Below are positions 16,301 through 56,294 of a stretch of DNA of 64,000 bases, one piece after another. Location: positions 85,808,001 to 85,872,000 of the forward strand of contig OZ260664.1 of the NCBI GenBank assembly GCA_965285935.1. Reading direction: 5' to 3'. The translations under genes were made by a program, and so were the position numbers. The notes beneath the pieces are model-generated. The model did no database searches, had not been told where the DNA came from, and saw only the letters and a list, made by a program, of their open reading frames with translations. Every line of letters starts with the position of its first letter. Position 1 is the first letter of the stretch. The stretch comes from Ophelia neglecta (taxonomy: Eukaryota).

Positions 16301-19300
16301 TCGGTCTGGTAAACTGGGGACCAACTACAATGGAAGGAATAGACGCCCATGAACGATTACTGATACATTTTAATATTCGGTCAGATGATCTGAAAGTATC
16401 ACGATACTTGTTCTAAATTATCCTACATTTGTCATTAGCATACGTATCACAGATTAGCAACCAAATCTATTAATATTTGGTGAATGACAGGCAGCATAGC
16501 TCTTTGTCATTTCAAGTACCGTCAGCGGATTTAATAGTATAGCTAATGCCCTACTAGTCTCAATGAGTATGATCTCATGTGAGAAATATATTTGCAAAGT
16601 GCAAAAGGGTTTTTCGTGCATGTGATCAGACAACATGGTTCCTGCATGACACATAGGTCCTTATCTTCTTGAATTCTATGTGCCCTGCCTTTGGGAGGGT
16701 TTATTCGTTAGGCTCACACGACGGTTGTGGGACCAGATAAAGACCAACTACCAGCCGACTTAGCTTAAAAGGTGGTTTAAATATGAGCCTTTCATATAAT
16801 TCCTGGTACTCCCCTATTTTTGACTCCTCTGAGATGCTCTTGAGTGCTGCATATCATCATTTACCGGTCAGGTTAAAACAACATGTTCGCCTTGAGCAAG
16901 CGAGATGGGTTGACAAAAATACCAATTCTTAAAGCATTTGTGATACAGAAATACCTGCTGTCTGGTATTTCGTAGCAATCTTCGGTGGACGACTCATCGG
17001 GAACAAGTCGGTTCTAACACTCAAGTGGCCAGGCGCCTCTCGACAAGTCGGCCTCGGTGAAGACCACTCTGTTCATGGAGGGTCATACCCCCCCCCCCCA
17101 TTGAAACTGGAGATTTTAAAAATTCCAAAGAAACAGTGCATATTATTAAATGTCGGATGATGTAGTATCGAATGAATACAGTAAACAGAGGAAGGTGTGA
17201 TGGTCAAAACGCACTTGTTTCATCAAATGACACGACTTTTCTGCCTAAACACATGGTTTATACGGGCCGTACGTGTTAAGACGCAACGGCTTTTCCAGAC
17301 AATACGGGCCGTACGTTGTGAAGCACCTACTGGTTGTACAAGAAGACCGTACCACCAGTGCTTACGCTCTGTTCACAACACACGGCCCGGCTGTGAGAAA
17401 TGTAATTGACAAGTGTTTTGCACGGCTTTTAAGTAGTAGCAACGTAGTAGATCGCGCATCGGTTTACCAAGACTGATCATTATAGTAAATTACACCAATA
17501 AGTAAGTCACATTACGCGCCCGTCAAACGCCACTTTTCCCTTATCATTACTTGGTTAATGTTCACAAATTTACTGTATGGGTACTTTACCGGTGTTACAG
17601 TTTTACTTAACGTGTACGGCCTGCGGTAGACCTGTGTTGAGACAGGAAAGCCATGTTATTTGTCGAAACAACTTGAATGCGTTTGGGAGGCATTACCTTA
17701 TATAGAAGCCGGCCCTCTCTTTTTAGCCACCGTGACCGGGACGTATTGGACAAATTACATAAAACATAACCAGATGGTTAAAATCAGTAGACCTACCGCC
17801 TGTTTACATTTACAGTGGCCCCTGTGCGTACATGCACACATCTATGCACGTACGGTGACGGAGGTTTTGTACAGCATAAGTGCGTGTTCATTGTTAGTTA
17901 GCCGTGTTTGTGAGGTACAAAACGCATTTGTTCACAACGCTTTGCTCTCTAAACACACGGCTTAAATAGGGGTCGCGCACTATATGAATAATATGTACTC
18001 AAATGTACACTGCAGGGGCGCTTCCTGTGCAAATGAATCATTCATTTTTTTTAGTAATTATCATAGCAGCTGGTCATTTGATTTATTATAATATCTTGTT
18101 CTGTAATTTGAGACAAAAAATAAAGTTTTTCTTCAAGAAATCAGTGAAATTGCATTTTTGTGGTAAAACTTGCTATAATAAGAAGTAGATGGAACTTACA
18201 GTGTTTAAAGGGGATAAACACTTTCAATTGCATATGCTGAAAAATTGAGCTGCTGAATGTGTGTTTAAACAATTTTATCCAATTGCTTATATAATTAGCT
18301 ACAAATTCATATTAATGAGATATCCCAACGGGTGTTTTCTTTTTTTTTCTTTTTTTTACTGTGCTATAGGCTAAAATGGACGCTTATGGCAAAATTCATG
18401 CCATGTTGTAACCAAAAGGCCTAGCGACCAACACTTTTAAGTGGGTATCTGGGGATGTGATACAAGTATTCGCCCAAAGACGGCCCTGTTGTTAAGAATT
18501 TCAAACACGGCTGGTTATTAAATCAAAATTTCCATGTCTGTATGCGTACGTATTATTATTATTTTAAGTCATAAGAAAGTTGTATAAGCTGAAGGTGTAT
18601 AGGCCTAGATTTAATGAGCAGACAGAGTAAGTGAACTGTATACAGTTTGCCAGATCGGCCGAAGTGACTGCTTGACCCTCTCGGTCTGTTCCACACTAAT
18701 AATAATAAGCAAAGCATGGGCCAACACTCAGAATGCCATCCAACAATTTGTTTGTACAAACACAATTTATCAAAGAGGGTCCAAACATATAATTCTTAAG
18801 TGTTTCTTATACTTACCGATGATGTCTAGTTGAGTATCTGCCGATACTTCTGATTTGAGCCGTCCAGTATATACCAGGTTAGAAGCCTGACAAGAGTATC
18901 CTCCGGCCTGATTAATATTTATGATGGAAATTTCAAGGGAGTTCTGATTGGTATCACCAGGGGGAGGTTGTACACCAAACCAGGTAAATACGTCTGCCTC
19001 TGGGTGACCTTTATCTGCCAGGTAACACGTCAAGGTCACATTGTCTCCAGCGTACACTTTCTGGTTTGAGAGCTGGAGGACCGGACGGGACGTCGAATCT
19101 GTGAATGGACAGAAAGGGGGTTGGTGTGAACCAGGCTTTCCTCGTGTAAATTGGCAGACGGCATATTGTACACATTTAGAGGTAATATATCTCATGAACG
19201 AACCCTATCATGAGTATTTCATAAGGTTTCCAGTGTGACATAGTTCTCTACGTCATTGTGGATTACTTGCCCGTAGAAAGGGAAAGACAATTGACTCAAC

Positions 19301-22300
19301 AATTTTAGGAAATGCAGATGGTGTGAAAACACTGTGCTAACAACCCAGAAACAAGGAGCAGTGAACATATTACTAGTTTGATTTGGTATAGATTGTCTTA
19401 GTCTTGACTTTCACTTGCTAGGAATATCCTTATCCTACCTCTATCAATATTAGATCAATATTATTTGTCGTACAAAATATGAATAATATAACAGGTATGG
19501 CATTTATTTCACGATAGTAATAAATTAATATAGCCCCGACTCATTTGTAAAAGCAGTGTGTGCCCTTCCTCTCGCCTGGAACACTTGGCCAGTGAAGGCC
19601 GGTGTTTATTAGACACATCAATAACATGAGACGCTCGGTTGTCGTAGCTAACCAGGGAGTTTGTTGTGTGATTCACGATAATAGCAAATACTTCTACTTA
19701 CATTGGACGTTAAGTTGGAGCTGTTGATTTCCTGCCGCCCCGATTCCGTTCATTCCGTTACACGTGACCGTCCCACTCGCCGATTTCCTGTCTTCTAGGT
19801 CGTTATTGGCCCATGTCAGAATAGAACCAGATACAGTTAGTAGATCACAGCTCCCTCCCTGGGTGTTGGTCATGCTATTCTGTTTAAGACCGTTGTCCTG
19901 TCCTGGAGACCAGGACCACTGGACTTCAGCAGCCGGCTTGGCGCTGTACGAACACTGGACGTCTACTGTATCATTGTTCAGGACAGTTAACTCGGCAGGT
20001 AAAGGTGTATTGACCATTAATGGTGGCACTGAAATACATCAATATCTTTGCTAAATCATGAAGTTATATGTTTGTTAAACACAATTATCGAAGCTTTTAA
20101 GAAAGAACAATTACCATTGACAATAAGCTGTACAGCCGCACTCCCGCCGACTCCCACCGTGTTATAAGGTGTACATGTGTAGGTGTCTTGCTGACATTCT
20201 GATGTCACGGTCACTGACAGTGTCCCGGCGTTGGTCTCTATAACACCACCTACTGACCTTGTCCAGTTCACACTAGATACAGGATTACCGGCGTTCCACG
20301 TGTCTCCAAGGTTACACATGAGAGATGCCACAGACTCCACTACGGCGGTCACAAGGCTGCTACCTGCCGTAGCCGACCCAGGTGGGACTGGAAACCAAAG
20401 TTATACAATTGATTTTCATCTAAAATGAAACACATATTAACAACAAAACTGGAGGCATTCCGTTGACGTTACTGCCGACGCCTGAAACGTGACTTAGCTT
20501 TGCCTTAATTAGTCTCATCTAACGTAGATATTCCTAGCCAAGTCTGTAGAGACTGTGAGAATAGCAACCCTATTTCTCGGTCCAGGGCTCGAACCTTGGT
20601 GAGGACCTATTTTTGTGTTTGTACATATAACCTTACATCGAATTACGTACAGTTTTGTGTTGATTATCTCTACTTGTCAATTGCACTATTTCTTTTAGTA
20701 AATGGAGCTTTACCAGCATTTGTCAAACTGAATGTGAAGCCTGTACGTCGCGCATAGTATGTGTTGCGGTGGTTTGGGCGGGTCGTTTCGTCATTCGTGT
20801 CATAGGTTCCCCGAACTGCGACAGCCGACGTTATTTTGATAAAAGGCGATAACATTGCATCCAGCGGGTAAAACATCAAAGACACACGAAACCGTGGACA
20901 AAACAACGTGAACGTCGAGGGGTATTCCAGTAGGTATTAGGCATGTTAGTTTTCAGGAAGCGCCTATATTTTGGGAGGATGACAATCGGGCTATTGGAAT
21001 AATAATATTATAGATTATTGGTTCTATATCAGTAAGCCCCTAATCTTTAAAATGTCTTCTGTTTTGAAACATACCGGGCAGCTTTACACACCGCGCGATA
21101 TGATTTTGATTACTCTATATACGTTCTTACCGTGTGTGATACAAACCTGAAAACAGTCCGAGCTGTAGTGAACAGGGATTATATTCCTAAAACAATGTCC
21201 CCGCGGTGACGGACGTAGCCACAAAAGTATCGCGATCTGCACTTTTCATAGAAGTTAAATGAAGACCGTACAAGTAAGGCGAAGTATGTAACAGGCGCAC
21301 GTCCTAGATTGGTGTAAACGTGTGGGTGTCCCCTGGCTTGGAAGTCCCCCTTGCTACATTTACTAATCATTACCCCCACTGGGACCTCTCGCTCTTTAAA
21401 CACTAGTATTTGAAATCTGACGGGGTATAAATCTTAGTAATCAGGGATCCGGCCTGCAAATAGTGATTTATTACGTCTCCCGGTGGCAAAACAGTTTTCT
21501 TGGGGCATTGTTATCCTATAGGTTTTGAGTTCTGGGACTGGTTAACCTTTTAAACCTAACACTCATTCACTCGATCTATTACCTTCAATTCCATTTGGGA
21601 ATGTACGTAAGATTAAAACTTCGCCACTTTGACATTAGATGGCCAGTGAAAAGCCATATGAAATATATCACTCTGTAATTAACAATATGTTATCCATCAG
21701 AAACCGTGAATTCCCGAAACGTTCATCTTAAAAACTTTATACATGCTGAAATATAGCAACAATCTTTATAAGGGTTCTTAATCAAAAAGCAGAACAGCCT
21801 GTCTAGCGGCACCTAGAGACAGTACAAAGAAGGAAAAGGGGTAATGTGAAATAAAGATTGGATTATTGTCGTATCTATAGGCATAAGAAAAGTCCCACTT
21901 ATGTCAGAGTATTTTTCAGGGCATGGCTTTACATGAAGGGCCCAAAGTTCACTTCTTGTGACATGAAAGGGTGTGTTTTTTATGGTTATTGTCTCCCCAG
22001 ATCCTTTTGTCTGTAAAAAGAGGCAGATCAATACATATTTAGAAACAGATTCATCCAGATTCAGGCATATTTTGTTTCACTATTATCGCTGTTTGTCAGG
22101 TTTCGGTGGATCTATGGATCCATTGTTGTCGCATAGTTACATGCATGGGTCTATATTTCGCACATCCCGTCACAACAGGCCCTATACGCCCCTCCCCACC
22201 ACCACAACCACTGCGACCGACCCCAACACCCACAGGGATCATCCCTCTCCCGTGTTCACCCTTCCCACTCCTTGCCCTCCTCCTTACTTCAGTACCCCCC

Positions 22301-25300
22301 CCACCCCACCCCCCGACCCCCCAACACACACTCATAGCCTCCGCTGGGCCCGTTTTCGAAAAGAAAATCACTGTGAAATAGACGTGGCATGTGGATGGAA
22401 TATATTTCAGCTTCTGACTTCACAAGAAAGAAGGCCATAGTTTGATGTGTGCAAGCGTAAACTGAATGCTACTACGGCAAAACAACTTCCGCTGTACAAA
22501 ATATATGAATATCCACATCACTAAATACTTCTGACATGTTGCGATGTTATATTCATCTGTGATGTGATTCAACAAATGTATACATACATTGCACATCTAA
22601 CATTGTTGTCGCCGATACAGTCACGTTATTAGCTCTAGCCACACACGTCACGTCTCCCAGACCATGTTTTCTCTGTTCGGCCGTCGTACCAGATTTCCAC
22701 CCCAGTGTTAAGGTAGTCCGTGTTAATATGTCACTAGGCCCCGTATTGGAAGTAGAGGTCTGGGTATCAAACAATCCCACCTGCTCAGAAGTCGTGGGTT
22801 CCCAGGACATTACAGCGGCGGGTTTAGAGTCCACAACACAATCTACGGCCAAGCTGTCGGTGTTCTTTAACGTTACTTTGTTTGTAACCGTCTGAGCAAA
22901 GGACGGAATGACTGAAAGAAAAACTAGCCGAACTAACCCGGCGAAATAATCTCCACTTACACAACAATTTGTTAGCATAATAGCACGAAAGACCACAATA
23001 TTGAATTGTAAAATGGTAATAACGTAGTGGACAGCGTACCATTAACGTTGAGTGTGACATCGCCTCCCGGACCGTCTCCAATGGCGTTTCTAATGTGACA
23101 CGTGTAGACATCTTCCTGTGTGACACTGTTCAATGTTATGGACAGGTTACCGTCATTAATAACATTGTACTGAGCGTCTTTACTCCGTGTCCACATGAAC
23201 TGCTGTCCGGCCGGGTTACCTCTGTCATACTGTCCAGTCCCAAACCCACACCTCAGTGTCACTTGGTCACCAATAACTGCTGTCACACTGGGTGTTAGTA
23301 CACGAGGTATCCCTGGTAAGTCTAGTAGCATACAGGGATTAACACATGATAAAGAAACATTTGAATTCACAGATGTATCTAAAAAGATTCAATATGTATG
23401 TTCTATTTCCAGACTATAAAACGAACACATTATATTGCAGTGAGTTGTTGCGTTTGCACTAGGCATATTATCAGTGGCGAAAAAAGACACGTTAACGAGC
23501 GGAAGAAAAGTTCATTGATAAACCAATGTAATAATGATTTTGTCTACAATGTGTTTCAAGTTTATGTATAATAAACAAACGTTAGTGTTTTGAGATGACG
23601 TTGATGAATCACAGGAAATATGACCCGCCCAGATTCTCGTTCAAACCAAACGCTTGGAAAATTATTAAACTTATATCAATACACACACTGTACATTCAAG
23701 ACAACATCATGGGTGGTCGTTCCATCCGCAGTCTCTCCTGTACAGGTGACGTCACCGGACGCTCCTTTCCTAAGGTTAAGATCAGAACCTGGCATCCAGC
23801 TCAGTGTCTGTGAGGATTGTGTCAGGAGTCCTCTGGTCCCGGTACTCGTACTGGGTAAAGACGCCGGAGAGAACACGTTTTGTTGGGCGGATGTTAAAGT
23901 CCAGGTTACCGTCGACTCAGGTCGGGCGTTGAAGGAGCACACAAACTGCCAGTTGTCGTCTGTGTTGATCACATTCGCTACACTTGGCACGGACGGATCA
24001 ATTCCTGGTTTTGCTGAATGAATAACGGAAACATTGATGTAAGCTGACCACCGTGGGGGGGGGGGGGGGGGGGTTACTCGGAAGTCACGCCAAACGAGAC
24101 GGATTCGATTCTTTTCTCATTAACACACTTAATTCACGCCAGTGCACTATATTTGTTATTATGTGGCGATATACAAGGAGTGTACCAAGGTGATCGTGGC
24201 CTATTGGTAAATATCATATAGTATGTGATGGGTACACGTACACTATGTTCCTGCTCACCTAGTGAAATAGTTTTATAATGGCGCCTACCTCTGACATCCA
24301 CCTCGATCTGAGCGCTGGGGCCCAGGCCGATGGTGTTCCCTGGTTTACAGCTGTATGTGTCTGTGTAGGTATAGTCTGTCAGTGTTAGAGACAGAGACCC
24401 ATCACTGCCGTCTCCGTCTACAGTCCCGCTTACCCGGGACCAGGTAAAGGTGGCTGGCGGGTTTCCGTCATCGTCTACTCTACACTCCAAAGTCACGACC
24501 GACCCCTCCAAGTTGGAGATCGGGGGAGTAACTGCTCTGGCTGCACCAGGGGGGTCTGGATAAAACAAAACTGTAGTGTTTAATAGGGACAGACACGTAA
24601 TAATAATATGAGGGACGTGTTGGAGTGAGGGGAGGGGGGGGGGGGGCATTGGTGTAGTAGCATCTTCTGTCAAAAGATATCAAGAAAGCAAATCCTCTCC
24701 TCCACTAATCCTCGCCTAGCTATATCCAATCCCATTTTTCATTAATTGATCACGTCCCTTATTTCGTCCCTTATTTCGGGACCACAGTTAAGACAACCTT
24801 CAGTGTTGGTTTTGTTGTTCATTGGCTCTCTAAAGAGGGTCTTAATACGATATATGGTGACAAGGTAGATTGATACATACATTGTACATTGAGAGTATAC
24901 ACATTTGAGTCTTTCTGTGCGGCCCGCGGTGCCGGTTGTTTGGCCCGACAGAACACTCCATCTCCCTGGCTGGCCCTACTCGGCCACAACTGGAGGACGG
25001 CGGTCGTTGAGTCTGATAGAGAGACGTTTTGTGTTATCTCCTGGACATTACCCTGTCCCAGGTCCCAATACCACCCCAGGGTGGCGGGGGGAGCGGATGG
25101 TGCCACCACACATGTCAGGGTAGTAGGCTGGTTCTCTCTCATGTCTATGATAGGCCCTGCGTGGTCCGTTATCACTGGCCTGCTGACCTCCACTGAAACA
25201 CAATCATGTATGATTTATCTTACGGAATGTTTGCATTAAATGTGCTTAATATAATAAAGGCGCGCTTACAGTATTTGGCTGGTTTCATTCATTCCTTACC

Positions 25301-27353
25301 GAACTGAGTTAATGTGGTAGCCTTGAAGGGATCGCCGTTATTGATTCCGTAGATACAGAACCATGTCGTCAAGTCTTTAGCCATGTCGATGTCGTTTATC
25401 TTTATCTCAAGGAAGAACTGGTCCCCTGAGGTATCACATTTTACATATTCGTATCTTCCATCCAGACAAGCTCCGTTTGTTAAGAACCCGCTGTTAAAAC
25501 TTATGTGACAATTTGCACATATATCATGTTCCTGCGACGGGTCACTTGAAAATCCAATCGTTATTTCGGGGACACTTGACAGTGGGCTGGCAACACATGT
25601 CAAGGTCACTTCATCCGTCGGCTCCACGTACTCTGGCAAACTTGTGAAGTTAATAGTTTCCGCCTCGACTCCACCTGTATAGTGAATCAAACGAATGATA
25701 GAAAATATTAATAGATCAGCTCTTAATAATAATAAGCCTTAGGGCACTCCTTTGAATCATTTGAATCAAATCGACCGATAAAAAGTAGAAGCTAAGGTTT
25801 GAATTGTGTTTTCAAATTCAACCTATATACGTTCATGTTTTAAAATGTCACAACACTTAAATTACGAATTCTTTGAGGGAAATAACTTGAGTTTAGATCT
25901 ACATTTGGATTCTAAAGGAACACACATTTTACCGAGTTTTTAAATTTCAGTCGAGACACTTGCACTTGAAAGTCTAGCCACTGGCTTTCTTAGCACAACT
26001 AGCATTTAGCTTAAGTATTGCTTTAAGGGTAGAAATATATTTATTTGGTGGAGTGAGGTTGTAAAACCCTTGTGAAGTGTCTTTGGTCAGCAAAGATGTG
26101 GCTTTTAATGGATGTGAGAGATTTGATGGTTGTGAAGTTGGAAAGGGGGTCCCGCTTATTAAATTACCATCATTGGAATTGGGAATAATGATATTCGAGC
26201 AAACGATAATAAATGCAAGAAGTCACATGATCTAGCTAACGTCATACGAGGTTCAAATGGCATAGCTATGTTGCAAACTCTGTCTGGGCATATGGGGAGA
26301 GATAAGAGACGGGGTGGAATGATTGGGTGGGATACATATGGGATGAGAGTCAGACGGTGGCAAGAAAGAGACGGGAGAGAAAGAGACGTGTTGTAAGCCA
26401 GAAAAAGCTAGGGAGAGCGAGCGAATAATCAAGTCAGAACCGAATGTCAGAGTATCGTTGGCTTACAATTTTAATCTGGAGGTCGCCTCTCTATCTCTCT
26501 CATAAATTATAACACATATTTAGAAAGCGGATCTTACACATATTTCCTGCAGTTGCGTATGTTCGTACCTGTTTGGAGAAACAGAATTAATTCGAAATCT
26601 TCGACTGCATTAACTTCCAAATTCAAACGAGCAATTTAACATATTATGATTATCCTTATCTGCTCATCGCAAAAACTTTTACAAATCCGCGGCACAGAAT
26701 ATAAAAAAAATACGGAATAGAAAATTTACAAACATTGTATCCTACTGAATCGTGGAGAAAACGTGGCAATTTTACCTGTTTTTGTTACACAGGGTAGCCA
26801 TGCCGCACCGAATAGACCATAAATAGCCAATAGCGGTGTTTGCCGCAATTCCTCAATTTCAGAACAGTACCATCACGTGTCTCAAAATTGTTTACTAATC
26901 ATAATCATGTTACCTAAATTATACTAATCATAATCAAGGCAATTCGGATATATTTCCTGCTTTGTTAGCCAATCACATGCCGGTTCGGCAAACTATATTA
27001 TTGCCCTTCGTGCTGTGGACAGATCAGGAGGTGGCACTGCATGGAATAATTACTATTTAGGTCACTGCAATATTTAAATATTGACTCCGCAGATTAAAAC
27101 TGCATTTTCCAAAATCACAGATAAGTATATTCCACCAATACTTCATCTAAGTTAAAAACACGACTTGGGGACCTATAGTGTCTCGAGAAGAGTCTATATA
27201 TTATCGAAGACTCTCTTTAATACTGCAAATATATAGTAATGGTAACTCACAATGGCTGATTCCGTGCATAAGTAAGTGGATGAAGACGTTCAGAAATATA
27301 TCAAGGAACAGCAGGTGGCCCTTTCGGACGCTAATATAATGTCCAAATGCCAT
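10965..27353 (-). CDS. Gene A: Ig/FN3 receptor tyrosine-kinase-like pseudokinase (SP, 11 Ig, 2 FN3, TM, ITAM-like motif, dead TK domain), about 1,770 aa, 23 coding exons
   Basis: Hand-spliced GT-AG exons with consistent phase: 27353-27251 (probable signal peptide, less certain), 25674-25300 (V-type Ig), 25192-24881, 24555-24289, 24013-23687, 23321-23040, 22911-22588, 20387-20115, 20028-19702, 19098-18817, 16324-15968 (Ig), 15727-15143 (Ig+FN3, WTCGYNGG...YVFEVVAYNQYG), 14524-14171 (degenerate FN3), 14070-13960 (TM IGAILGGIFGSLALAAIIIFLVLLFL), 13842-13751, 13624-13517 (juxtamembrane), 13324-13186, 13068-12952, 12855-12707, 12622-12494, 11892-11778, 11302-11206, 11061-10965 (kinase: DIAMALDFLH, PPET, ADVWAFGVVMWQL, CWNYNPDMRPTF). 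No internal stops. Confidence 0.9.
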
Positions 27354-42395: not shown

Positions 42396-45300
42396 TTATT
42401 TTGTTTTCTTTTTTTTCCTGCAAGCGCAATATAATATAACACCAATAATTATTAATCCTCCGAGGATTATCAACGCACCATGCCACCAAGACAGTATTGG
42501 TTTGGTATCTGAAAGTATACAAAAATATATATAAAAGTTTACCAATGGTATGAAAAAAAGCCACACCATAGGCTGAACGTACATAGTTTCCAAAACTCAA
42601 TACGGGGAAACTTTATCAAGGCACACATACAATGCCCTTAAACAAATATTCTGCCTGTGCTTAGTACTTAGGTAGGAATGAATATCGGGAGGAAGAATAA
42701 TGTCCAAGAAGTTTGCAAGGAATGGCTTTAATTTGGATCAAAACATAATTAGTAAACACGATTGCTCAATATTAGATTTTGCCAAGTATGTTAAATGTTA
42801 TGCTGCCTACCTACCTAGTATCACAATAAACTCCTTTCGCAAGATATTTCCTCCATCAATATTTGCCGCTTCACAAGTGAACGTTTCGACTTCCTGTTCT
42901 GTTTTAGTCAACAGCAAAGAACTGGTGGTTCTGATCAACTCCGGACGTTCAGTACAATTCTCATTTCGAGTCGCGTAGTCATTCTGTTATTCAAGAAAAG
43001 TAAGATCTGAGTTATAGAGTGATATTTATCCTGTAGGAAGCTATCTTGATTCAGAGCGTCACGCGTTCCATTTCAATGTCTAATATCCCGATTATAATGA
43101 TTTTGCTGAGAACACGCTATGTTTGGTGTTTTACTTTAATCTTTATTACCTTGCAATCTTTATCTATATATATTTTTTATGGTTATTCCGTTTACCGGCT
43201 CAGTTAAGCCAATTCAATTTACAATGAACAAATATCGCAAACTATGTCTAAATATATCACGCCATCAGCATCCTGCAATGCACAAGTAAGCTCGTCAGAA
43301 TAAGTTATAATACGACCGTTGCATTATGTTATCTGAATTTTGTGTGTAGGATAGTTTATGTAATGGGTATCCCTCCCCCCCCCCCCTTCGATGCAAATTT
43401 GGAAGCATAATTTAATCGTTGTCAGTCGTCATTTGTTTCCAAACAACTAACCTCTTACCCTATTCTTAAAGAAGAGGTGATAGTTGTACATTTATATTAC
43501 CACAAACAAATCAGGATGAACACAACCAGCCATCGATACTGATAATACAACTACATGAAAATTTACAATTATTACTTCTATAGTAGTTGCTCGCCACTCC
43601 TTAGATAGCCAGAATGGTTGAAATACAGAAACAGTGATACATGTAATTGATAAGTCGCAAGTGGTTGTATGAGGACGAAAGCCTCTTGTATTGTACCTGA
43701 GGTATAGGAAATCGAGTTCCATTGCTCCACGAAATGTTTGGTGAAGGGTATCCGCAGTCCGATTGGCAAGTCAAATTGAATACTTGACCTGCCTTAACCT
43801 CCAACGGCACAGTTGTATCAGGCCAAGTGGTTATACTGCTGATTTCAACTGAATACAAAGTTTAAAGTACTGGTTAATAACGAACAACAGCTTTTGATTG
43901 ACCAGATCAAAATTCAAATTATTGAAAGTAGATGATTTATATAGATTAATTTGATGAAATTTTATTTCAAATATAATAATAATGACCTGCCACAATATTT
44001 TAGATTTTTCCCAATTTATCAAAGTTTCTTCAATTCACAATTACATAAAAAGAAATAGCAACAAATATCACGCAGCACGTACAACTCATTTGTTTGGCGA
44101 CCGATGCATTAAATGTTACACCAGGCCTCATATTGGATAAAGTTCACACACAGTCTTAATGGCAACTCAACTTATATAAAGAATAACATACTGGAAGAGT
44201 AAGTGTATACATGCTCTGTAATAAATTTGTAAAGGTTGATTTCCTTCATGCATCATGCATTTCTTCTTTAATTAAATACATTTCCATCCTCTCATTACTA
44301 ATTACATATAATTTTAGGTTTTGACATGATTTAGATTTTGTCATGTGTCCCGGAACCCTGCTTGGGACCTTGTTTGTTAATTGCTTTTCCCTGACAGCTC
44401 CCGGCTGGCGCTAGGCATTGGCCCATTGGGCTTTGACCCACTGTGGGGCCGATGCTTCTTGCTGTCAATAAGATTGTATATAATATCAACTGGTTAGCTG
44501 CTGCTTTGTTTGCCTGGTCTATATATGTACATGTGCTTTATGATTGACGAATATACTATTCCGACTGCCTTAACTGCCTTGGCTGTGCATAAAATCGACT
44601 GCCTTTACTGCTGTTTTGTTTGTATATGTATGCCTGGTCTATGTATGTGACTGTGCTACACCATTGACGGTTATACTATTTTGACTGCCGTTAACTGCTG
44701 TTTTACATGCGCTTGTATATATTATCTTGTTATGGTGCCAATTGTCTTATGTTTAAATACACCAGTCGACTTTTCCTTTCGGTGGTTCTCACGATAGCGT
44801 TCTTCTATAGAACGTAGTGGTATCTCCCAGACCAGTAAAATGTGTTACATGTTTGTTTCCTGTTTGTCTTATAAGAGTAATCTAGCTTACTATAGTAAGA
44901 ACTGTATTCACCATGTAATGTTTGTTTTGTTCTCTAGTCTAAATAAAATAACCTGAATCTGATTATTGGGAACGAGATTCTGAATTACACTGTAGCTTTA
45001 TTTGAATAATAAAACACTTATGATGAATGTAGCTGGCTGAGTGAATGTATTCATTATGCCCAAACCCTCATTTTTCGATTTCGGGGATACAACGCAGGGA
45101 TCTGCGATAGAGCTGACCGACTTAGTTTTATTTTGGTTGAATCGAACACTTACCGTACACGTCAATGTAGACCGAACTGCGCAAAGTGTCCACATCACAT
45201 TGCCATACACCGTTCCAAGTGGCATTCCGATATGCTTGTATTAGAAGTGTGCAGTTACTACTAAGCCCAGGGGCGAGCGTACAATTAGTACAACTAGCCT

Positions 45301-46795
45301 GCTTCACGACATCGGAAAGTCCATTCACATGACATCCATGCGCAACATTCCTATTGAAAACAATAACAGCGAAAGATGAATTAAACAGTGCTGTCATGAT
45401 TATTGATTACTAGAAAATGACTGCTTTGAAAACATAGTGCATTCCAAATAATAATGTTATGAAGGTATCCCATTTCAAACAAGAACTGGTCAATCTAACA
45501 CGGAGCCAGATGATAACTCGCACAGCTAGCGTTCATTAATCCACATTAGGAGAAAGATATTTCAAACCCTTACTTAGCGGAACCCAGGGGAAATCCAGGG
45601 CACACAAGTGATAACACATAATCAAACCAAAAAGTAAAGCCATCGAGGTCAGGCCAACCAAGAAAAACCTTGAAAGTGACATGGCAATTTCCATCAAAAC
45701 AAAATGAGAGAACTAGCAATCTTACTAAAACTGAAAGATAGTGTTTGTTGTAGCGCAACAGGGCCGAGGCGAGGAGGGGGGGGGGGGGAGGAGGCAATAT
45801 TAAGACCAATGATCAGAGCATAATATTTAATGGCCATTTGTCTACCACACTTGGAGTAACATTCCTGACACCGCTTTACAGTAGGGTCGAATGTCTATCA
45901 TGCACGAAAGTTGGTGTAATTAACCCGGCCATTTAATAACGTACACTTTCCATACTACTAATTAATAATAATCACTAGTAATTGTTTAGGTGATCCAAAG
46001 TTTCTGATATGCATGTTAAGTTAGCGCTGTTTACCCAGACGTCCTCATATCCAACATACTTCATACAGCTAACTATAAGTACATTTATAACCACCTTAAT
46101 TTATTTTGTCCAAAAATGCAAAATACCTATGGAAGAAGCCTCCCTACACCTTCCAATGTGTACCGTTGGGTATTCCAGAACTAGGTTTAGATCCTACGCT
46201 TGGAGGTTTAAAATAAATAGTGGAAGTCTGACAGATATTTACGCTGTGTATCAAATGTGTATATTTTTTAGATGCATTTCTTTCATAATGACCCCGTTGT
46301 CAAAGCTACGGGGACAACCCCCTGCCTAAAATAAAAGTCCCCGCCCTCCTTTTTTTACTAATGACATTACCTTCGGATACCATATTCTATCATAATAGCA
46401 ACTTCGAGTCGTCGAGCTACAAAATATGTTATCGCTTCTGCGATACAATACATATTTTAAGCATCGTTTTTATGGTAAGGTCAATGATAGTTGGAACTTA
46501 CTTGGACGAAGGTGGTTTAAACCACTGTTTATCAAAAAGAGAAGGACCAGTGCAGGTAAGAAGAACCATATCCCCCTCCATTGGTGTACTGTCGTTTGTG
46601 GTGATAACCACGGACTGGATCACTGAAATAAAGTCAAGATAGCGGACGCGACTGATCACAAACATTTAATTAATGAAAACAAATTTCATCATTCTTGAGA
46701 CGACACGCGGTGATTAAGAATGTTTTAAAGAAGGAATGATAACCTGGCAATGAGATCAAAAGGAATGATATCCGCTTTATTATTATAGCCTGCAT
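42396..46795 (-). CDS. Gene B: two-Ig-domain single-pass membrane protein with a 7-residue basic tail, 267 aa, 6 exons
   Basis: Exons 46795-46744 (signal MQAIIIKRISFLLISLP), 46622-46502 plus 45350-45154 (V-like Ig: EGDMVLLTC...QWFK...GVWQC), 43848-43697 plus 42983-42815 (C2-like Ig: FNLTCQSDCGYPSPNISW...FTCEAAN), 42508-42396 (TM ALIILGGLIIIGVILYCAC then RKKKKTK*). All junctions are GT-AG with compatible phases. Confidence 0.85.
44511..44700 (+). repeat. Diverged direct duplication (about 70 bp, 120-bp period) inside a probable TE remnant in a gene B intron
   Basis: TGCCTGGTCTATATATGTACATGTGCT...TATACTATTCCGACTGCCTTAACTGC at 44511 recurs as TGCCTGGTCTATGTATGTGACTGTGCT...TATACTATTTTGACTGCCGTTAACTGC at 44631. 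Confidence 0.65.
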
Positions 46796-47029: not shown

Positions 47030-50000
47030 ATGATTAACGCGCTCGCCTGTTTGATGTGTCTATTGAGATTACTAAGTTCAGCGGGTAAGACACAACTTTC
47101 AAATTCATTATTATATATCGAGCCAAAGAAAATTCTATATGGGGCTATATGTCTCATTCGTTATTCAATTCTAGGTATTATACATTAATCAATTCTATCA
47201 TTAACTTAACTGCAGCAAGCTCGGTCGGCGTCGTATGGAGCTCAGAGTATTATGTCTTGGTGGGAGACAACATCAGCCTATCTTGCTCTATGAACATACA
47301 AGGCGCTTATCGCAAAGCCCAGTGGAATACAGACGCTGTAAATAATCAAGCCTGTTCAATGTGTCATAATCCCGATTCACAATACATCACAGCTATGGGA
47401 AATCCGTGTGATACAAGTCTTAGATACCGAGACGGGGGTTGTGATGGCAATAGAACCTGGATCACCGGGACACTGGATGTGACTATAGACCGATCAGACA
47501 TCAGGGAATGGGTGTGTGTAGGACCTTCGGTCCAAAATCAGGCATCAGAGTCGCTCACAATCCACGAATTCAGTAAGTTTATCTATTGCATGTTTTTTAT
47601 TTAGGATGCATATATAATGGTTGTATGCCATAAATTGCCCTGCCGAATAAACCGCGGTATTTGCATGACCAGCCATGGAATGTAATGTAAGTCCGATTTC
47701 TTCTCCATCTCGAATAAGAATAATACGAGACAGATGTAAAGAACAAAGGGTTGAGATTTCGTTTTGCCAATTTTGAATATATGCTAAAGGATCGTACATT
47801 GCATACAAAGGCGATCGTTTAAACACACATTCGCCTCCTTACTGGGCTCAGTGCTGTCCACTTGCAGAAGAAGTTAGTAGTTTGAAACTTAACTTGCTTT
47901 GGGCATAAATCACTGCCAGCATGTGAGCCTGCGAGCATCTAACCAGTGATATAGCCCATAGTTATAGGTAAGAGGTATGGCTCATTCAAGCAACAGTTAC
48001 ACCGTTATGCTAAAGGCTGGTTTTTAATTTCATCATTAAAATTGTTTAACTAAAATGCAAAATCGGTCAGCTGGGTTTGATTGGAATAGGTTCATGCTGT
48101 CTTAAACAATTCCTGATAACGCAATTCTCTTAAGTCAAATCATAAACGATAAGAACTTTTTTTTTCCAATTTTTTTTGGAATGTTCACCAGGTTCACCCC
48201 ACCTAAAATTCCCAAAAGTCTGTTCTTAAAGCTGTAAGTAAAATTTTGAGTGTGTATAAAGTGACCCCATTCGGTTAAAAATTTGAAAAGCCCTCTCCAC
48301 CCAATATGAGTGGTATAATCCCATATCGGGAAAAAAATATATATGCGCTTCAAATTGACAAGGGCGAAAAAGGGCGTACGCAACGATTTTAAGAAAATAT
48401 TTTAATGCTCTGGACGGTAAACTATAATAACTTAGTAATTCATTGCCGACTCACACAGAATATACAGTTCTAGGGAACTGAACTGTATCATTACCTTTTT
48501 ACATACGAATGCCCTGAGAACTAGGTGTTATTTGGAACATGCCATTCAGTTTGGCATAGAAGTTCTCTGTCAGCAATTTTGCTTAGACTGTGGTACTGTT
48601 ATTTGAAATGTATTAACTTACCAAACATATATATGTACATGGCTTCATTGTAGTGTCAACAAGGAAAGACGTGCAATTGATTTTAATTGAGCTTATATTT
48701 CCTGGCTATCAATCCTGTTTAACTTCTCTGAACCCAAATTCAAAGTATAATGATAAAGGATGTACTGGTATGATTTTAATCGGCGAGGCAGGGGAGGGTT
48801 GGAAGGAAGGGTGTAGAAAGAGCATAAAAGTTTTGGGGCCCAGATTCCTGCTCCCGAGAGATGTTTTGCACTCAATGAGTAAAGACAAAGTTATCTTTAA
48901 ATGCATTTTGCACTTAAAAGGTTACATTTCTCCACATTGAGTGATATTTATGATTTGAGACACAATTTTCTCTGAATTAATGTGACAATATCCATAATGA
49001 AACGCCATTATATTTAGTAGCTGCGTAAAGCTATTAAATATTATATGTGGAAAAACACCAATTAACTAAAACACTTCCGGGAGTACGCCAAGCAGGTTGA
49101 TTGTTGGCGGGTTATACTCAGAAATGATTTATATCATTTAAGGAAGTTATGTTGCCGCTGTTCTATGTCAAGGATCATCAAGAATGCGGAAAGTTTGCTC
49201 TCACACTATAAGTGTTTTCCTCATATAAATAAAATACCCGTCTCTGGTACACCACTGTAAGATTAAAAAAATATACGTTATGTGTACCGTGTAATCGTGG
49301 TAAGTGGCTTTTTTACTTTGCGTATCGCATCAACAGGGCAGATATGAATGGAAAATGGATCAAGACGCATGACATCTCTACCCCACCCACCAGTCTCAAC
49401 GCGTAACACGTGGCAGCGAGTTCTGAATGTACTAATTACAATGGTATGCTGCCCACTTAGACCAGTAGTAATGTAATTCGAGACAGTCCGGACTGTCGGG
49501 AAAGAAACATTACGAAATTTATACAATAAAACCTTTATTGAGTCACTGATGCGACTAATATCTTGCCTAGAAATGTCAAGGCAACGTTGTTTAAATTATG
49601 AGATAAAAGCATCATTGCTACCGAATCCTTGGTTCGACCACCCATGAGCGAAGCCACAAGATAAGAGCATTTTGTTTGAGAGAATTAAATGCCTAAGCAC
49701 AAAATGTCATGTTGCCCTGGACGTCCCAACACGCATTCACGCCTAAATCTAGCCATGATTTATTTTTATTTACAGAAGCGACGTCTACTCCATCAATTGA
49801 CAACTACACCTCCAACGCCGTGCAGGTAGTGTCTGTAAGAGAAAATCAACAAAAGTCATTCACCTGTCGTGTACAGGGTGGCGCTCCTGTGCCAGTTATC
49901 ACATGGTACCAGACCCCAAACACTAACATCACAGACAGCCCCCAGCAGGACTACGGCAATGGCGGATACTCCCTACTGTTGGATATAAACATGACCCGAC

Positions 50001-53000
50001 AAAATGACGGGGTAGTGATTTACTGTGGTGTCCACCAGCCAGGGTCATCGCATTCTCAACTTTCCCAGTCTCCAAAACTTACAGCTAACGTTCTCTGTAT
50101 GTATTCAAAACCTTCCTCATCATTAAGACAACAACTTATAAAACGAAAGACTAGTGAATACCCGACTGAAAAATAATGAATAGATGACATTGCATTAAAT
50201 GGTGCACCAAGCTTTGGGGATGGAGGGGGAGTGGGGTATGGTGGGGGTCTTATTATAATGTCTATGACGCGGAAAAGTGTACGCATTAGAGCACCGCTGC
50301 CTAAACGGGGGTATAATGTGTCAGCCACACAGTATCCATTGACTGTGTCAATGGCGAGTTATGAATCACTGAATTTCATTGATATAACCTTGCAAGTCAT
50401 ATAGGATTAATCAAATTTAGTAACTGACACGCAATGGTGATCACAATTATTCAAAAACATTTGAACGGTTTGTTAGGAGTATGGTCGATGGAGTTTGGGT
50501 ACAGTTAATACTCACTTTGTAGACCAATGCATTAGTCAAAGCATTATGGTGGACAAATCATAGGCTTTTTTATTCATCAACTATGCTCATAATCGGTGCA
50601 AACTATAATCAAAAACTGTAAATAAAGCTCTTAAGTATCATACTAATAATGAAAATTACGAAATTAAGATTAGACTTATTAACAAATATTTATATATCGA
50701 GAGTTTAGGTAAAATCTCGTGCTCTCTCTAATTGTTTTATTTAAAGTGCACCTCAAGAGGGTGAGAACGATTTTCTGTGGTCCAATACATTTCACCGTTT
50801 CATACCTGATTTTGTTTTACTGTACCACGCTGCTTGTAGACAAACCAGATCCGGCAGTGGCCACTCAGGCTAATGTCGTCGTTACACTGGGAGACACTAA
50901 TGTGTCGCTGAGTTGCCAGGCTAACAGTCAGTGGCCAGGGAACCCTCTACCGACCTTTACCTGGACCAGGACTGGGGGCGGCTGGAGCGATAACGGACAT
51001 ACTATCCACGTGTCCGTACTGAATCCGTGTATAGACACGTATTATTGTACTCCTTCTAACAGTGAAGGTTTGGGAACACCGGCTAATGTGACCCTTGAGA
51101 TTTTAGGTGAGAACAAGGAAGAATTATTGGTGTAACCGACCATACTAATATCATGGTAACAGAACTTAATATGTCGTTTTGTCTTAAAGCGCCCACCGTA
51201 ACAAGCACGACAATCCAAAGCACTGTTGTAGCTGTAAACACCGACGATAGCTGGATGGTGAGATGTGGCTTTAAGGGACTACCTGCGCCTACTGTCAGCG
51301 TTACAGGACCCGGAATTGGTAATATATATCAGGTGGTCCATGGATCTCCCAGCCTCACCGTGGATTGTTATCAGGAATCTTCCGTCATCTTGAAATGGAA
51401 GGCGGTAGACCAAAACACCAGGAAGGCCGGAAGTGCGCGAATTACATGTACAGGAAGAAATGGTGTTGGTTCAGTACCGGGTAGTCATCACTTCAACATC
51501 GACGTGCAATGTAAATACCTCTTGTTATACAAGAACTTGGCGAGAAATGTTATTTGCTCTTCTGGTTTATATCGAAACGACCCCAGTAGAGGAAAGAAAT
51601 ATACTTATTTTTTCAATGTAAAGCAATAGAATAATTGACTTATTAGATAAACCAGGAGCAGCATCCTCTGAATCGTTGTCACCTGTTAGTGTGCACCAGA
51701 CGGCGACACTGCACTGTTTTATGGCTGGAGACACTGAAGGAAACCCAATATCCAAATTCAACTGGACACGGAAAAATAATTCTACATGGCAGGTTTTAAA
51801 CAATAATGGGAGCCTGCTTCTTCCAATAACAGACATGACTTTTGAAGACGAATACTACTGTACTCCATGGAATATCCGCGGAGCAGGGCAGAAGGCGACG
51901 ATCCAACTTACATTTAAAGGTTAGAGATTGGGCTACCTGAAGAAGATTAACTATAAAAGTCCGCCAGTCTGGTGCTTTTAGATCACCAGGCATATAGTTC
52001 GAACATTCTATAGTTAATGTATTTAGCTACCCAAGGACTATACTGCAGTTGCTCTAGTAACTAAAAAACACTTGCGCCGGATAAATATTTTTAGCTATCT
52101 TAATTTATCGCTAGTTGATACATCGAATTTATGTCTATACCTCATAATGTAGAATGGGCGTTACGATATTATTATGTTCTTTTGAGAAAATCTTCCACAG
52201 GCACTCCATTGGCTGTCATAATAGGAGGAACAATCGCGGCTGTTATATTTGCAGCCACCATAGTCATCGTTTTAGTTGTGCTGCGCAAATATAGGAAAGG
52301 AAGTCAAAATGGTAAGTTATGATTTTGTATTGATCCAAACATCATTTCGATCCTACTGCCTTTCGAATCAGTCATATTTTCGTTTTCGATATGTGTATGT
52401 CCATTTCATGCGTTATTGGTCTTGGCAGATTATCTAGAACCAGTAAAAAGACCATGCGACGACATCGATGGCATTGACTCCGTCTACAGCGTCATCGATG
52501 ATATTGATGTGATCCCCACCAACCTCCATCCGGATGCCCAGGATAACGTATATTTGACCATGTCATTTTTATATCAATCCGGCATTTTTTTCTCTGTAGC
52601 GTTGAACCTGTAATGCTTAAGTGATGCTAGTGGATTTATTTTATATCATGTTAACCCAAATAAACATTGGATTGAGTGAACTGTTTTAGAGCACAGTATC
52701 CTGTCGCAAAGGGAATTTCGCTGTTTTCCCTCGCCCGAAAATAATAATTGACACCTAGATACGTGTTTTTGAAAGGTATCCAAATAATACGTCTAAAAAG
52801 GCTTAACCATTGAAAAGGAATGATGTGTGGATTCCGATAATCCAACTACCAACAGTTCTATATCTGCTCAAGTAGATATACAATGCCAATAGGCTGAAAC
52901 ATCTGTCCAGATAATCGGAAACCAGTCGGATGTCTGATTGGGCGGTCCTGTTAAATTAATTATTAACATATTCAAATAGTTCCATTTTCTACACCTTGAA

Positions 53001-56000
53001 ATTGTTTGCCATGGAGAACAAGTTCCTAGAACGGTTTTTGACTAACTTCTGTTCCTGCTAACACTGAACAAGAAGAGCCATATTCCAGGGAGAGCCACAA
53101 TAGCCATTGTCAGGGTAAAATAATGGAGCAGACTTTATGATTTTTTTTTCAGTCCGCGGGGATTGCAGTACATTGTTGTAAATAAAGTTGTTCGTCTGTC
53201 AATTTTCCAATTTTCTTCTTTTGGACACTAATCTTCTCATTGGAAAATGACGACACTCATTTTGATGACCCTCACTTTCATAATAACAAATAATATAATT
53301 GATTGAATAGCTAGCGTCTCTATATTCATCAGAATATATAAAAGAGCAAACCTATAATTAGTACCCCCAAAAAATGAAAGGATGAGGTTTTTTTTATAAT
53401 AAATGAAGATTTTGGTAGGATTGTATTTTATTGTAAAACGTATGAAGCGAATATGGACTGGCAGATGAATCTATGTATTCAAACAATTCAGTTGGCGCAA
53501 TGACCTGTTGTCATTATTTGTATAATGTGCTTCGAAAGTTAATTTTTTATTAAATATATTCTCGCTTTACAATGCCCCCCATGATAGCAAAATATATACA
53601 AAAAAGTGTCTTAATGATTCATCCTATTCATATAATAAGCAGATTGTCAAGAACACTTCAGCTGATTACGACTTATTGGACAAGGAAGCTAATAGACTGT
53701 CCAGGAATTTTTACGCCACCCTAGAGAACAAGGATAACAGTGTGGTACGCCACTTATACTATTATGTCATATATCATACTATTAACACGAATAGCACCAG
53801 TGTTTTCGAATTATCATATGTCATTCCATCAGGAATGAAATTGAATTTTCATGTCATAGGAGAATTTCAATTTTGTGTAACAGGATGCGCCTGCGGATTC
53901 TTTTATCGTCCCACCTGGCGCGTTCAGCTTGGGGAAACATTTACGTAAAGGAGCTTTCAAAGTCATTTGGTCAAGTGACAACTATAGTTCGAATGCTGCT
54001 GTTGTGAACCGAATAAATAGTGCGGTTTGATATAATTTCATCTCTAAACAATATTGGCCAGCAATGATACTGACATTTTTTAAGGCTAGCCGTACCCCAT
54101 TCACTTTCGCATTTTTCGTTACTTAATAAAACACAAGTTAAAGGGTTTAATCATTCACTTCGCCTGCGTATTCACGAAACACACAATACATTAAAATGAA
54201 TTACAAATGTGCCCAAACACACGGATGTTGTCCTCAATCATCGGAAATATAACTTTCCCAACAAGCCGACGATCCACAAAATTATAAAACCTATATGATA
54301 CGTAAATTAACTACATAATCTAATGTATTTCCCATGTTTCTTTATTCAGACAACCCGAGTGATGAGGACTACTTAATAGCATTTAATGGTTTGAAAGCAT
54401 TGTTAAAATGTGAATCCTCACTTTTTGTCAGTCGGTTAATCGGATTCACTATTACAAAGGGTATTGATAATGTTATTCATCTGCATTTTTTTCTACTTTA
54501 ATTTTGGTGGTTGAAGTTCGGTTCAAGAAAATTGTTTCCCTTTTCTTTCGTGCAGAGTTTCTATATGTTATGTCGGAATTCGCAAGCGAAGGTAGCCTTC
54601 ACAAGTTTGTCAAAACAGCACCGAATGTGTCCTCGTACGCATCCCATATACTGAAATGGTCAGGGAACATTGCTCAAGCCTTTGATTACCTTCATTCCGA
54701 ATCCGTAAGTATATTCAGGTAAATCATGTTGACTTATAATCACGGTATCTTGTGGCGCACTGGTATCTTTAATACATTTAAATTCTTAATAATATGTATT
54801 GTGTCCAAACTTTAAAAATAATAGTAATAAATGGTCATAGATAGTTTTCTTGGGCGGATGGGTACGGCTATACTATTATAAAATCTGTTTATGTAAATAC
54901 AAACTATCATCTATAAAAACATGTATTCTATTGTAGCAACCATTCCTCCATCCATGTTTATCATTATATCAAATACTGTTGGATTCTCATCTACGAGCCA
55001 AACTAAAAGGATTTTGGCTGGCTCAAGATGTGGTTGCTAAATATGCCAAGAAAGACGAGGTAAGGATCGAAATTTAGCGTCTGCATTCTTGTACCCCCCC
55101 CCCCTCAAGGTATTTCCCCTTCCCCACGTTATTTCCCTTCCCCGGCTGTGTCGAATAGCTAGACGAAAAGAGTTGAGGTAAATTGGTTACTAATCATCGG
55201 AGCCTATTTTTTTTGTATACGCTGTTTAATTTGAATATACACGCTATGTGTCAGGTTATTCCTATCATGTTTGTGTTTTTAGATCACAAAATGGCCAGTC
55301 CGTCACCTGCCCCCTGAAACTTTACTCTATGGTGTATACAACCAAGCATCCGACGTCTGGGCATACGGTATCCTGATTTGGCAAATATATAACAACGGTA
55401 AGACGGCATAATGTTTAATGCGAATTAAACAGGTCTGCGTTTGAATTTCAATAGGACGGATTAGAAAACCTACTTATATTCAAACGTAAACGGAGGAAGG
55501 TCATTCATATTAGCGCCAACTTAGAAAATATATGTGCGTGCGTGTAGTAGGCAGACCAAATGAATATGTATGCCCGTTTTAACAAATCTGCTGTATAACA
55601 ATAAGACGACATTCACAAGCGCATTTATTTACGAATATGTATTGGAATAACGGAAACTCATTCCTTTTTGGCATACTGGAAAACCTGATACGAAATTCGA
55701 AGGAAATACGAGATACACAGATACGAAAAATTAAGATTGAGTTGGATTATGACAGGGTAAGGGGTAGGGTTAAGCTAGCAACCTAACTAAACCATAACTT
55801 ACTTTATCCTTCACCCTAACCCTAACCTAGTCCATATGGCTACGTTTTAAACACCTCGTATCTCGTATCTGCGTCTCGTATCTGGTATTTCGTATCAGCT
55901 TTTCCAGTATGCCTTCCTTTTTTTATTGGTGAACTACAGTGTGATGTATTTATTTAGGGAGTATTCCTTATCATGCCACTAAAGAAAGTGAAGTTGTCAA

Positions 56001-56294
56001 GGCAATATGCGATGGTGATGTAATGGATATGGGAGAAGGGTTTCCAATGTCATTGTAAGTGTTCTACGAATTGTCAATAGTTCTGACCACATTTATGTCA
56101 CAATATGTTGTATTCAAATGTTGCTTAGATGTACGTGGGACAACGCCCTGAGAACGGGAGCTGCTATTAAATTTGGCTCTTTTTCTTATAGTGAAATGTA
56201 TATTCGAGTTTGTTGGAGATACGAGCAGGACAAAAGACCGAGTTTTTCTAAAATAACGAACAAATTGAAGTCGCTGACCTACAGAATGAAATGA
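47030..56294 (+). CDS. Gene C: Ig receptor tyrosine-kinase-like pseudokinase (SP, 5 Ig, TM, ITIM-like and ITAM-like motifs, dead TK domain), about 920 aa, 16 coding exons; paralog of gene A
   Basis: Exons 47030-47084 (signal MINALACLMCLLRLLSSA), 47216-47572 (V-type Ig), 49776-50096, 50840-51106, 51190-51510, 51647-51919 (Ig), 52201-52311 (TM LAVIIGGTIAAVIFAATIVIVLVVL), 52429-52547, 53643-53744 (juxtamembrane), 53884-54019, 54350-54460, 54556-54704, 54937-55059, 55283-55397, 55958-56054, 56192-56294 (kinase: NIAQAFDYLH, PPET, SDVWAYGILIWQI, CWRYEQDKRPSF). Cytoplasmic intron positions and phases match gene A. Confidence 0.9.
53884..56294 (+). CDS. Tyrosine-kinase-fold (pseudokinase) domain of gene C, 7 exons
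   Basis: LGKHLRKGAFKVIW (Gly loop missing), AVVN (beta3 Lys lost), NGLKA (alphaC Glu lost), FLHPCLSLYQILL, AKLKGFW, WPVRHLPPET, DVWAYG, CWRYEQDKRPSF. Confidence 0.9.
55670..55913. mobile_element. MITE (non-autonomous DNA transposon, Mutator/MULE-like) with 9-bp TSD in an intron of gene C
   Basis: TIRs GGCATACTGGAAAACCTGATACGAAAT and ATTTCGTATCAGCTTTTCCAGTATGCC (1 mismatch in 27). Perfect TTCCTTTTT duplication at 55661-55669 and 55914-55922. Internal inverted GATACGA and telomere-like TAGGGT/ACCCTA repeats. Confidence 0.88.

Follow-up and report, generated by a model that had tools for sequence, protein, structure and literature searches.

What kind of receptor is encoded by gene C, a predicted gene on the forward strand of Ophelia neglecta contig OZ260664.1 (assembly GCA_965285935.1), and through which partners could its product signal? 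The gene lies in a stretch of 64,000 nucleotides (contig positions 85,808,001 to 85,872,000; hereafter the window), and coordinates below are window positions unless another contig or locus is named. The initial annotation had described a cytoplasmic tail that combines a canonical ITIM (a tyrosine-based inhibitory motif of immunoreceptors) with a motif resembling the ITAM (the tyrosine-based activation motif of immunoreceptors). The analysis reported here suggests that gene C, which looks intact, belongs to a tandemly arranged family of ITAM-bearing immunoglobulin (Ig) receptor pseudokinases and probably signals via Syk or Shark. The model of gene C, built from splice signals, predicts a product of 919 amino acids from 16 exons; all introns are GT-AG with consistent phases, and there is a single terminal stop. 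In this model, one frame runs from a signal peptide through five Ig-like domains and a membrane helix into a juxtamembrane segment of 74 residues and then a tyrosine-kinase domain:

47030..56294, + strand: gene C, predicted Ig-domain receptor tyrosine pseudokinase (16-exon gene model)
47030..47084, + strand: first exon resembling a signal peptide, a role suggested by its hydrophobic sequence
47216-47572, 49776-50096, 50840-51106, 51190-51510, and 51647-51919, + strand: five Ig-like exons, all of phase 1-1
52201..52311, + strand: transmembrane exon of the gene model, its helix without a charged residue
52429..52547, + strand: juxtamembrane exon JM1, with YLEP and SVYSVI (52479-52496); the donor at 52547 is inferred from phase
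53643..53744, + strand: juxtamembrane exon JM2 of the gene model, with the ITAM-like YDLL-x11-YATL (53667-53723; Y617 and Y632)
53884..56294, + strand: tyrosine pseudokinase domain in seven exons, from matches to PF07714 and to solved structures

All motifs named in the initial annotation are in frame in this model, namely SVYSVI at 52479-52496 (translation confirmed), DYLEP (read at 52428-52442), and the ITAM-like motif at 53667-53723, which reads YDLLDKEANRLSRNFYATL. Because the seven kinase-domain exons (53884-56294) lie downstream, these motifs are juxtamembrane and do not form a tail. Pfam Ig matches were obtained for Ig domains 2, 3, and 5. Domain 4, without such a match, has 32% identity to domain 4 of the paralog gene A (A4) in the same window, and the likeness of domain 1 to V-set clusters in the Atlas is a lead only.

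Conservation among paralog sequences is the main support for the ITAM-like motif. A census of the family by one kinase exon found 27 loci, which is a lower bound: 25 form a 1.7-Mb cluster at C7:85.09-86.77 Mb, one lies at 82.9 Mb, and one is on C33. A second exon query added two decayed fragments within the cluster. The 27 copies are classified into four subfamilies of 3, 4, 12, and 8. YxxL-x11-YxxL is open in 25 of the 27 copies, including gene A; the exceptions are L024, whose spacer contains a stop, and L019, in which the exon is missing. A tandem-repeat block occupies the place expected for this exon (L019:3340-5700). Among the 25 aligned JM2 exons, the two tyrosines and two leucines of the motif are the sole invariant columns out of 41, and there is variation at the ITIM-defining -2 positions. 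In the four subfamily representatives, these Y/L/Y/L positions are 100% identical, compared with a mean of 15% for the other 29. The motif is thus the one fixed feature of the JM2 exon in all four subfamilies, and this part of the initial annotation stands, with genes for both Syk and Shark present in the genome. When the juxtamembrane segment of gene C (74 residues) was shuffled 50,000 times, YxxL/I-x6-12-YxxL/I arose in 2.3% of the trials, and the ITIM and ITAM patterns arose together in 1.3%. The predicted cytoplasmic D-YDLL-x11-YATL of gene C, with an Asp before the first tyrosine, fits the ITAM consensus YxxL/I-x6-12-YxxL/I with an acidic residue ahead of the first tyrosine (PMC6994640).

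The frames downstream of the juxtamembrane motifs match the tyrosine-kinase family PF07714, and the best solved-structure matches of exon 55283-55396 in the Protein Data Bank are the tyrosine kinases EGFR, BTK, MuSK, and FLT3. However, the catalytic motifs of gene C have changed from VAIK to VVNR, from HRD to HPC, and from DFG to GFW, such that the lysine and both aspartates are lost. A pseudokinase is defined by sequence as lacking at least one of the VAIK Lys, the HRD Asp, and the DFG Asp; with all three lost, gene C therefore falls within this definition (PMC13519141). In the family as a whole, the HRD and DFG aspartates are missing in all 27 of the exons K4, and the beta-3 lysine is Asn in the C subfamily. 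Ratios of nonsynonymous to synonymous substitution (dN/dS), pooled over pairs that are not independent and with the broken copies L018 and L024 omitted, are 0.33-0.52 for kinase exons K1-K5 across the four subfamilies, 0.28-0.42 for JM2, and 0.29-0.47 for the ectodomains. The kinase-exon values indicate that the dead kinase has been maintained, and by these sequence comparisons the loci are a predicted pseudokinase family under purifying selection.

In a tree of 25 kinases of the worm genome, based on about 95 columns stacked by motif anchors and open to long-branch attraction, the cluster family is monophyletic (ultrafast bootstrap 99) and joins a second pseudokinase set with HP/GF signatures on C7 and C70 (ultrafast bootstrap 96). 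Both sets are nested in a group with four active kinases (ultrafast bootstrap 95), and the active kinases L116, L119, and L121 have Ig-like or membrane exons upstream. This topology suggests that one ancestor lost catalysis and that repeated expansion followed, although it rests on few data and may be affected by long-branch attraction. The second receptor-pseudokinase set is found at C7:13.5, 19.2-19.4, 24.1-24.2, and 28.7-28.9 Mb and on C70 (L111-L113, L118, L120, and L124). Ig and fibronectin type III (FN3) exons are present in its members c28 and L120, and L113 has YASL-x13-YAGL after the membrane helix. A profile of 15 K4 exons, compared with 1.84 billion protein representatives, gave eight matches, none spanning the profile (seven ordinary kinases and one repetitive non-kinase), and a word-indexed protein search with the same query gave no match; with 41 positions in the query, both are weak tests.

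Across the family, 21 of the 27 copies have an intact region from the membrane exon to K5, and six are broken or truncated in the stretches read. Ectodomain size varies in the approximately 20 kb read per gene, with five Ig domains in the C subfamily, 11 Ig and two FN3 domains in gene A, and intermediate numbers in others. Synonymous divergence in the C7 cluster (subfamilies A, S2, and S4) is two to five times higher in the ectodomain than in the kinase exons. This contrast in the sequences is consistent with domain shuffling or with conversion of the cytoplasmic part.

Genes for possible signaling partners are present in the genome, in which a scan for SH2 domains gave 108 matches. The Syk gene has an N-terminal SH2 domain with SYK as its best match (E 1e-19), a second SH2 domain, and intact kinase exons and motifs, and the Shark gene has the order SH2-ankyrin-SH2-kinase. 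A protein search with longer Shark lengths returned ankyrin proteins only and says nothing on Shark. About eight tandem-SH2 loci lie at C2:96.40-96.66 Mb (L026, L027, L034, and L035); two of these were examined, and both are SHP2-like phosphatases. At C5:3.28-3.61 Mb (L028 and L029) are about five loci in which the first SH2 exon is duplicated; one of them was read and encodes a Src-family kinase. As side observations, Asp replaces Ala in the catalytic loop of the SHP2-like L026 (VHCSDGIGRTG), and the Src-family locus has HRN instead of HRD in a segment picked for a discarded tree with mis-picked segments. The genome also has a single-exon PI3K p85 gene, with its best named match in Capitella teleta (64%), which points to a probable annelid.

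Taken together, the most likely mechanism is one in which a ligand would cluster the receptor and a Src-family kinase would phosphorylate Y617 and Y632. The doubly phosphorylated JM2 would then recruit Syk or Shark through their tandem SH2 domains, with the pseudokinase acting as a scaffold or as an allosteric module that gates the complex. In the weakest step of this scheme, JM1 would tune the output: most subfamilies would use YxN, and the C subfamily would use S/T-x-YSVI, which may be an SHP2 site. What can be read in the sequences is the architecture of the family, its loss of catalysis, the conservation of the motif, purifying selection, and the presence of Syk, Shark, Src, and SHP2-like genes; that the receptors are expressed, become phosphorylated, bind these partners, and serve in immunity or recognition is inferred.

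Several points weigh against this scheme. The study of the Alr family gives an ITAM consensus with a narrower spacer of x6-9 (10.1101/2022.03.04.482883), which the x11 spacer of gene C does not fit, and the paired conserved YxxL could equally serve the tandem SH2 domains of SHP2 or endocytic sorting. In the stretches read, the sister pseudokinases c28, L118, and L120 are without the ITAM pattern and have single tyrosine sites only. No positive selection is seen in the ectodomains (pooled dN/dS 0.29-0.47), and immune-type ligand diversity is therefore not shown here. Moreover, the paralogs are of common ancestry, so the 25 copies with the motif amount to approximately four independent lineages. 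Finally, the exon model of gene C is based on splice signals and agreement among paralogs.

The JM1 exon, located in 26 of the 27 loci, differs among subfamilies in its tyrosine sites. In gene C, SVYSVI fits the ITIM consensus [ILVS]xYxx[IVL] (10.1101/2022.03.04.482883), as do only two further JM1 exons, those of L009 and L012 (3/26). The two closest paralogs of gene C have TIYSVI at this place, and the two larger subfamilies have mostly NTYDNI or NPYDNI. Outside the C subfamily, the second JM1 tyrosine is in a YxN context in 22 of 23 exons, and YLEP is confined to the C subfamily (3/26). Since 25.4% of the shuffled juxtamembrane segments have the ITIM consensus, the ITIM alone is at chance level. 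Thus, the canonical ITIM that had been reported holds as a consensus fit in gene C, and a survey of paralogs, with the ITAM-like motif in 25/27 and the ITIM consensus in 3/26, indicates that an ITIM is not a feature of the family. The initial annotation had also aligned PVYADI of gene A with SVYSVI. In a MAFFT alignment of nine JM1 exons, PVYADI stands opposite RPCDDI of gene C (Tyr to Cys), and SVYSVI stands opposite the second site of the family, YENT; however, this alignment is ambiguous because of a 24-nt tandem repeat (17/24 identical) in the JM1 of gene C. The C subfamily has CDDI/YSVI in place of the YDNI/YENT sites of the family, and JM1 is thus remodelled in this subfamily, which may tune the output.

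The tandem YxxL may instead dock SHP2-like phosphatases in a bidentate manner, which would make the family inhibitory receptors or Ras-ERK adaptor receptors, with YSVI adding to this function in gene C. The tandem-SH2 loci on C2, both examined examples being SHP2-like, favor this hypothesis, and so does YxN in JM1 of most members, YxN being a Grb2-type pattern. On the same side stands the -2 position of the second JM2 tyrosine, which is N, A, S, or similar and not the classical hydrophobic residue. However, the fixed distance of 15 residues between the tyrosines and the Leu at both +3 positions match the ITAM of Draper, and the ITIM-defining -2 positions are variable. We consider SHP2 docking unlikely as the main function of the motif.

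A second alternative is that the proteins serve as co-receptors in adhesion, guidance, or development and work via the pseudokinase, as PTK7/Off-track and HER3 do, with the YxxL pairs being sorting or structural elements. Their Ig and FN3 ectodomains are under purifying selection, the pseudokinase is conserved, and YxxL is compatible with the endocytic sorting consensus YxxPhi, which accommodates it. However, sorting signals do not need a fixed spacing. A birth-and-death cluster with six of 27 copies broken or truncated, two further fragments, and shuffled Ig counts is also unlike single-copy developmental receptors, which makes this explanation decidedly improbable.

The initial annotation had further proposed that genes A and C are differently tuned paired receptors. 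Paired activating and inhibitory receptors have near-identical ectodomains and opposite signaling tails. The relevant features of gene A are:

10965..25738 (ends approximate), - strand: gene A, a paralog with 11 Ig-like and two FN3-like exons, a transmembrane exon, JM1, JM2, and a pseudokinase
13532..13588, - strand: ITAM-like YEKL-x11-YIGL of gene A, in the homologous exon 13517-13624

This second motif had been overlooked, and with it the implied contrast in motifs between genes A and C disappears: the ITAM-like motif and a pseudokinase occur in both, and their tails are not opposite. Their best full-length Ig matches are 27-40% identical, the first domains do not align, and gene C has five Ig domains compared with 11 Ig and two FN3 domains in gene A. 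With these shared cytoplasmic modules and such low Ig identity, genes A and C do not form a classical receptor pair, and only a weak form of different tuning, based on the JM1 change of the C subfamily, survives. Although JM1 differs among subfamilies and SVYSVI/TIYSVI is restricted to that of gene C, a pair in which C carries an ITIM plus an ITAM in a short tail and A is tuned differently is very improbable given the shared modules, dissimilar and unequal ectodomains, and chance-level ITIM consensus.

The genomic partner of gene C appears to be a different gene. Gene B lies head-to-head with gene C at a distance of approximately 1.4 kb, and the same pairing is found at all three C-subfamily copies (L094 and L095 upstream of L001 and L002). 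By this arrangement in the sequence, gene B is co-duplicated with gene C and is its real genomic partner; a role as co-receptor or decoy is possible. This gene and the intron insertion in gene C are located as follows:

42397..45645 (ends approximate), - strand: gene B, encoding a small Ig-like membrane protein that has a short basic tail and lacks a tyrosine motif
52573..53256, no strand assigned: 684-bp intron insertion in gene C, not in paralog L001 (comparison with L001)

The joint of this 684-bp segment was considered as a second allele and rejected, as the joint matches paralog L001; it therefore carries no allele information. DNA contigs from runs X1 and X3 show 0 differences from 52380-52512, and runs X1-X3 behave like DNA from one sample. 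An alternative phase-2 junction between JM1 and JM2 (52561 to 53588) was also rejected: L001 has no such acceptor, and in the other subfamilies the two exons are joined in phase 0. Elsewhere in the window, a very high-copy short repeat (depth >50,000) lies at 55670-55915 in the K5-K6 intron of the kinase domain of gene C. Between genes A and B are an UNC-93-like membrane protein gene (30357-34414, + strand; PF05978) and, read by eye, frames resembling a retrotransposon of the long interspersed nuclear element type (35293-39700, - strand), with an endonuclease-like part at 37400-39028 and a reverse-transcriptase-like part at 35293-37437.

More broadly, it is possible, although less likely than the signaling route itself, that the family represents an undescribed class of invertebrate immune receptors. 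These would be Ig/FN3 receptor tyrosine kinases that lost catalysis and switched to ITAM signaling via Syk/Shark, in a birth-and-death cluster with shuffled Ig domains beside expanded SHP2-like and Src-family genes. If true, this would link receptor kinases and ITAM immunoreceptors. A 27-member cluster uniting ITAM and pseudokinase offers a testable candidate for annelid receptors of variable recognition, and it suggests how a receptor kinase might pass its signaling to Src and Syk. In searches of the open literature, no paper returned describes the family in its title or the start of its abstract, and kinome surveys in subscription journals or supplements could list the genes. Both modules are known, and as far as this literature and short-query protein searches go, their union in an expanded cluster is new. 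We know of no ITAM receptor that carries an enzyme domain of its own.

Among known receptor tyrosine pseudokinases, most are single-copy co-receptors in development, and PTK7 likewise has an Ig ectodomain. PTK7, HER3, RYK, ROR1/2, EphB6, and STYK1 resemble the worm proteins in having a single membrane pass and a tyrosine-kinase fold without VAIK, HRD, or DFG residues (PMC13519141). The worm family is set apart from them by its expansion to a cluster of 27, by its variable number of Ig domains, by the ITAM-like motif conserved in the juxtamembrane part, and by an HP(x)/GFW signature; the comparison is one of signature and architecture.

Among ITAM receptors, Draper has two ITAM tyrosines, Y934 and Y949, that are necessary and sufficient for Shark recruitment, and their distance of 15 is equal to that between Y617 and Y632 of gene C (10.1101/198986). 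The signaling set of Draper/MEGF10, with Src as writer, Syk/Shark as reader, and an SHP2-type eraser, has all of its genes in the worm genome (10.1101/198986; PMC8092387). Draper is described with EMI/EGF domains and an NPxY motif (10.1101/198986; PMC8092387), whereas no NPxY was found among the cytoplasmic tyrosine sites of gene C, which instead adds a pseudokinase. The oyster receptor CgIgR, also lophotrochozoan, has five Ig domains, a transmembrane region, and an ITAM, as gene C does, and is reported to recruit Syk; this likeness is one of architecture, and the accessible text describes no kinase domain in CgIgR, unlike in gene C (PMC6994640). In the Alr family of Hydractinia, clustered receptors with Ig and FN3-like domains carry ITAMs and ITIMs, as in the worm cluster. 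The Alr tails are diverse, with no kinase domain described in the accessible text (10.1101/2022.03.04.482883), whereas the worm family fixes one motif position before a pseudokinase.

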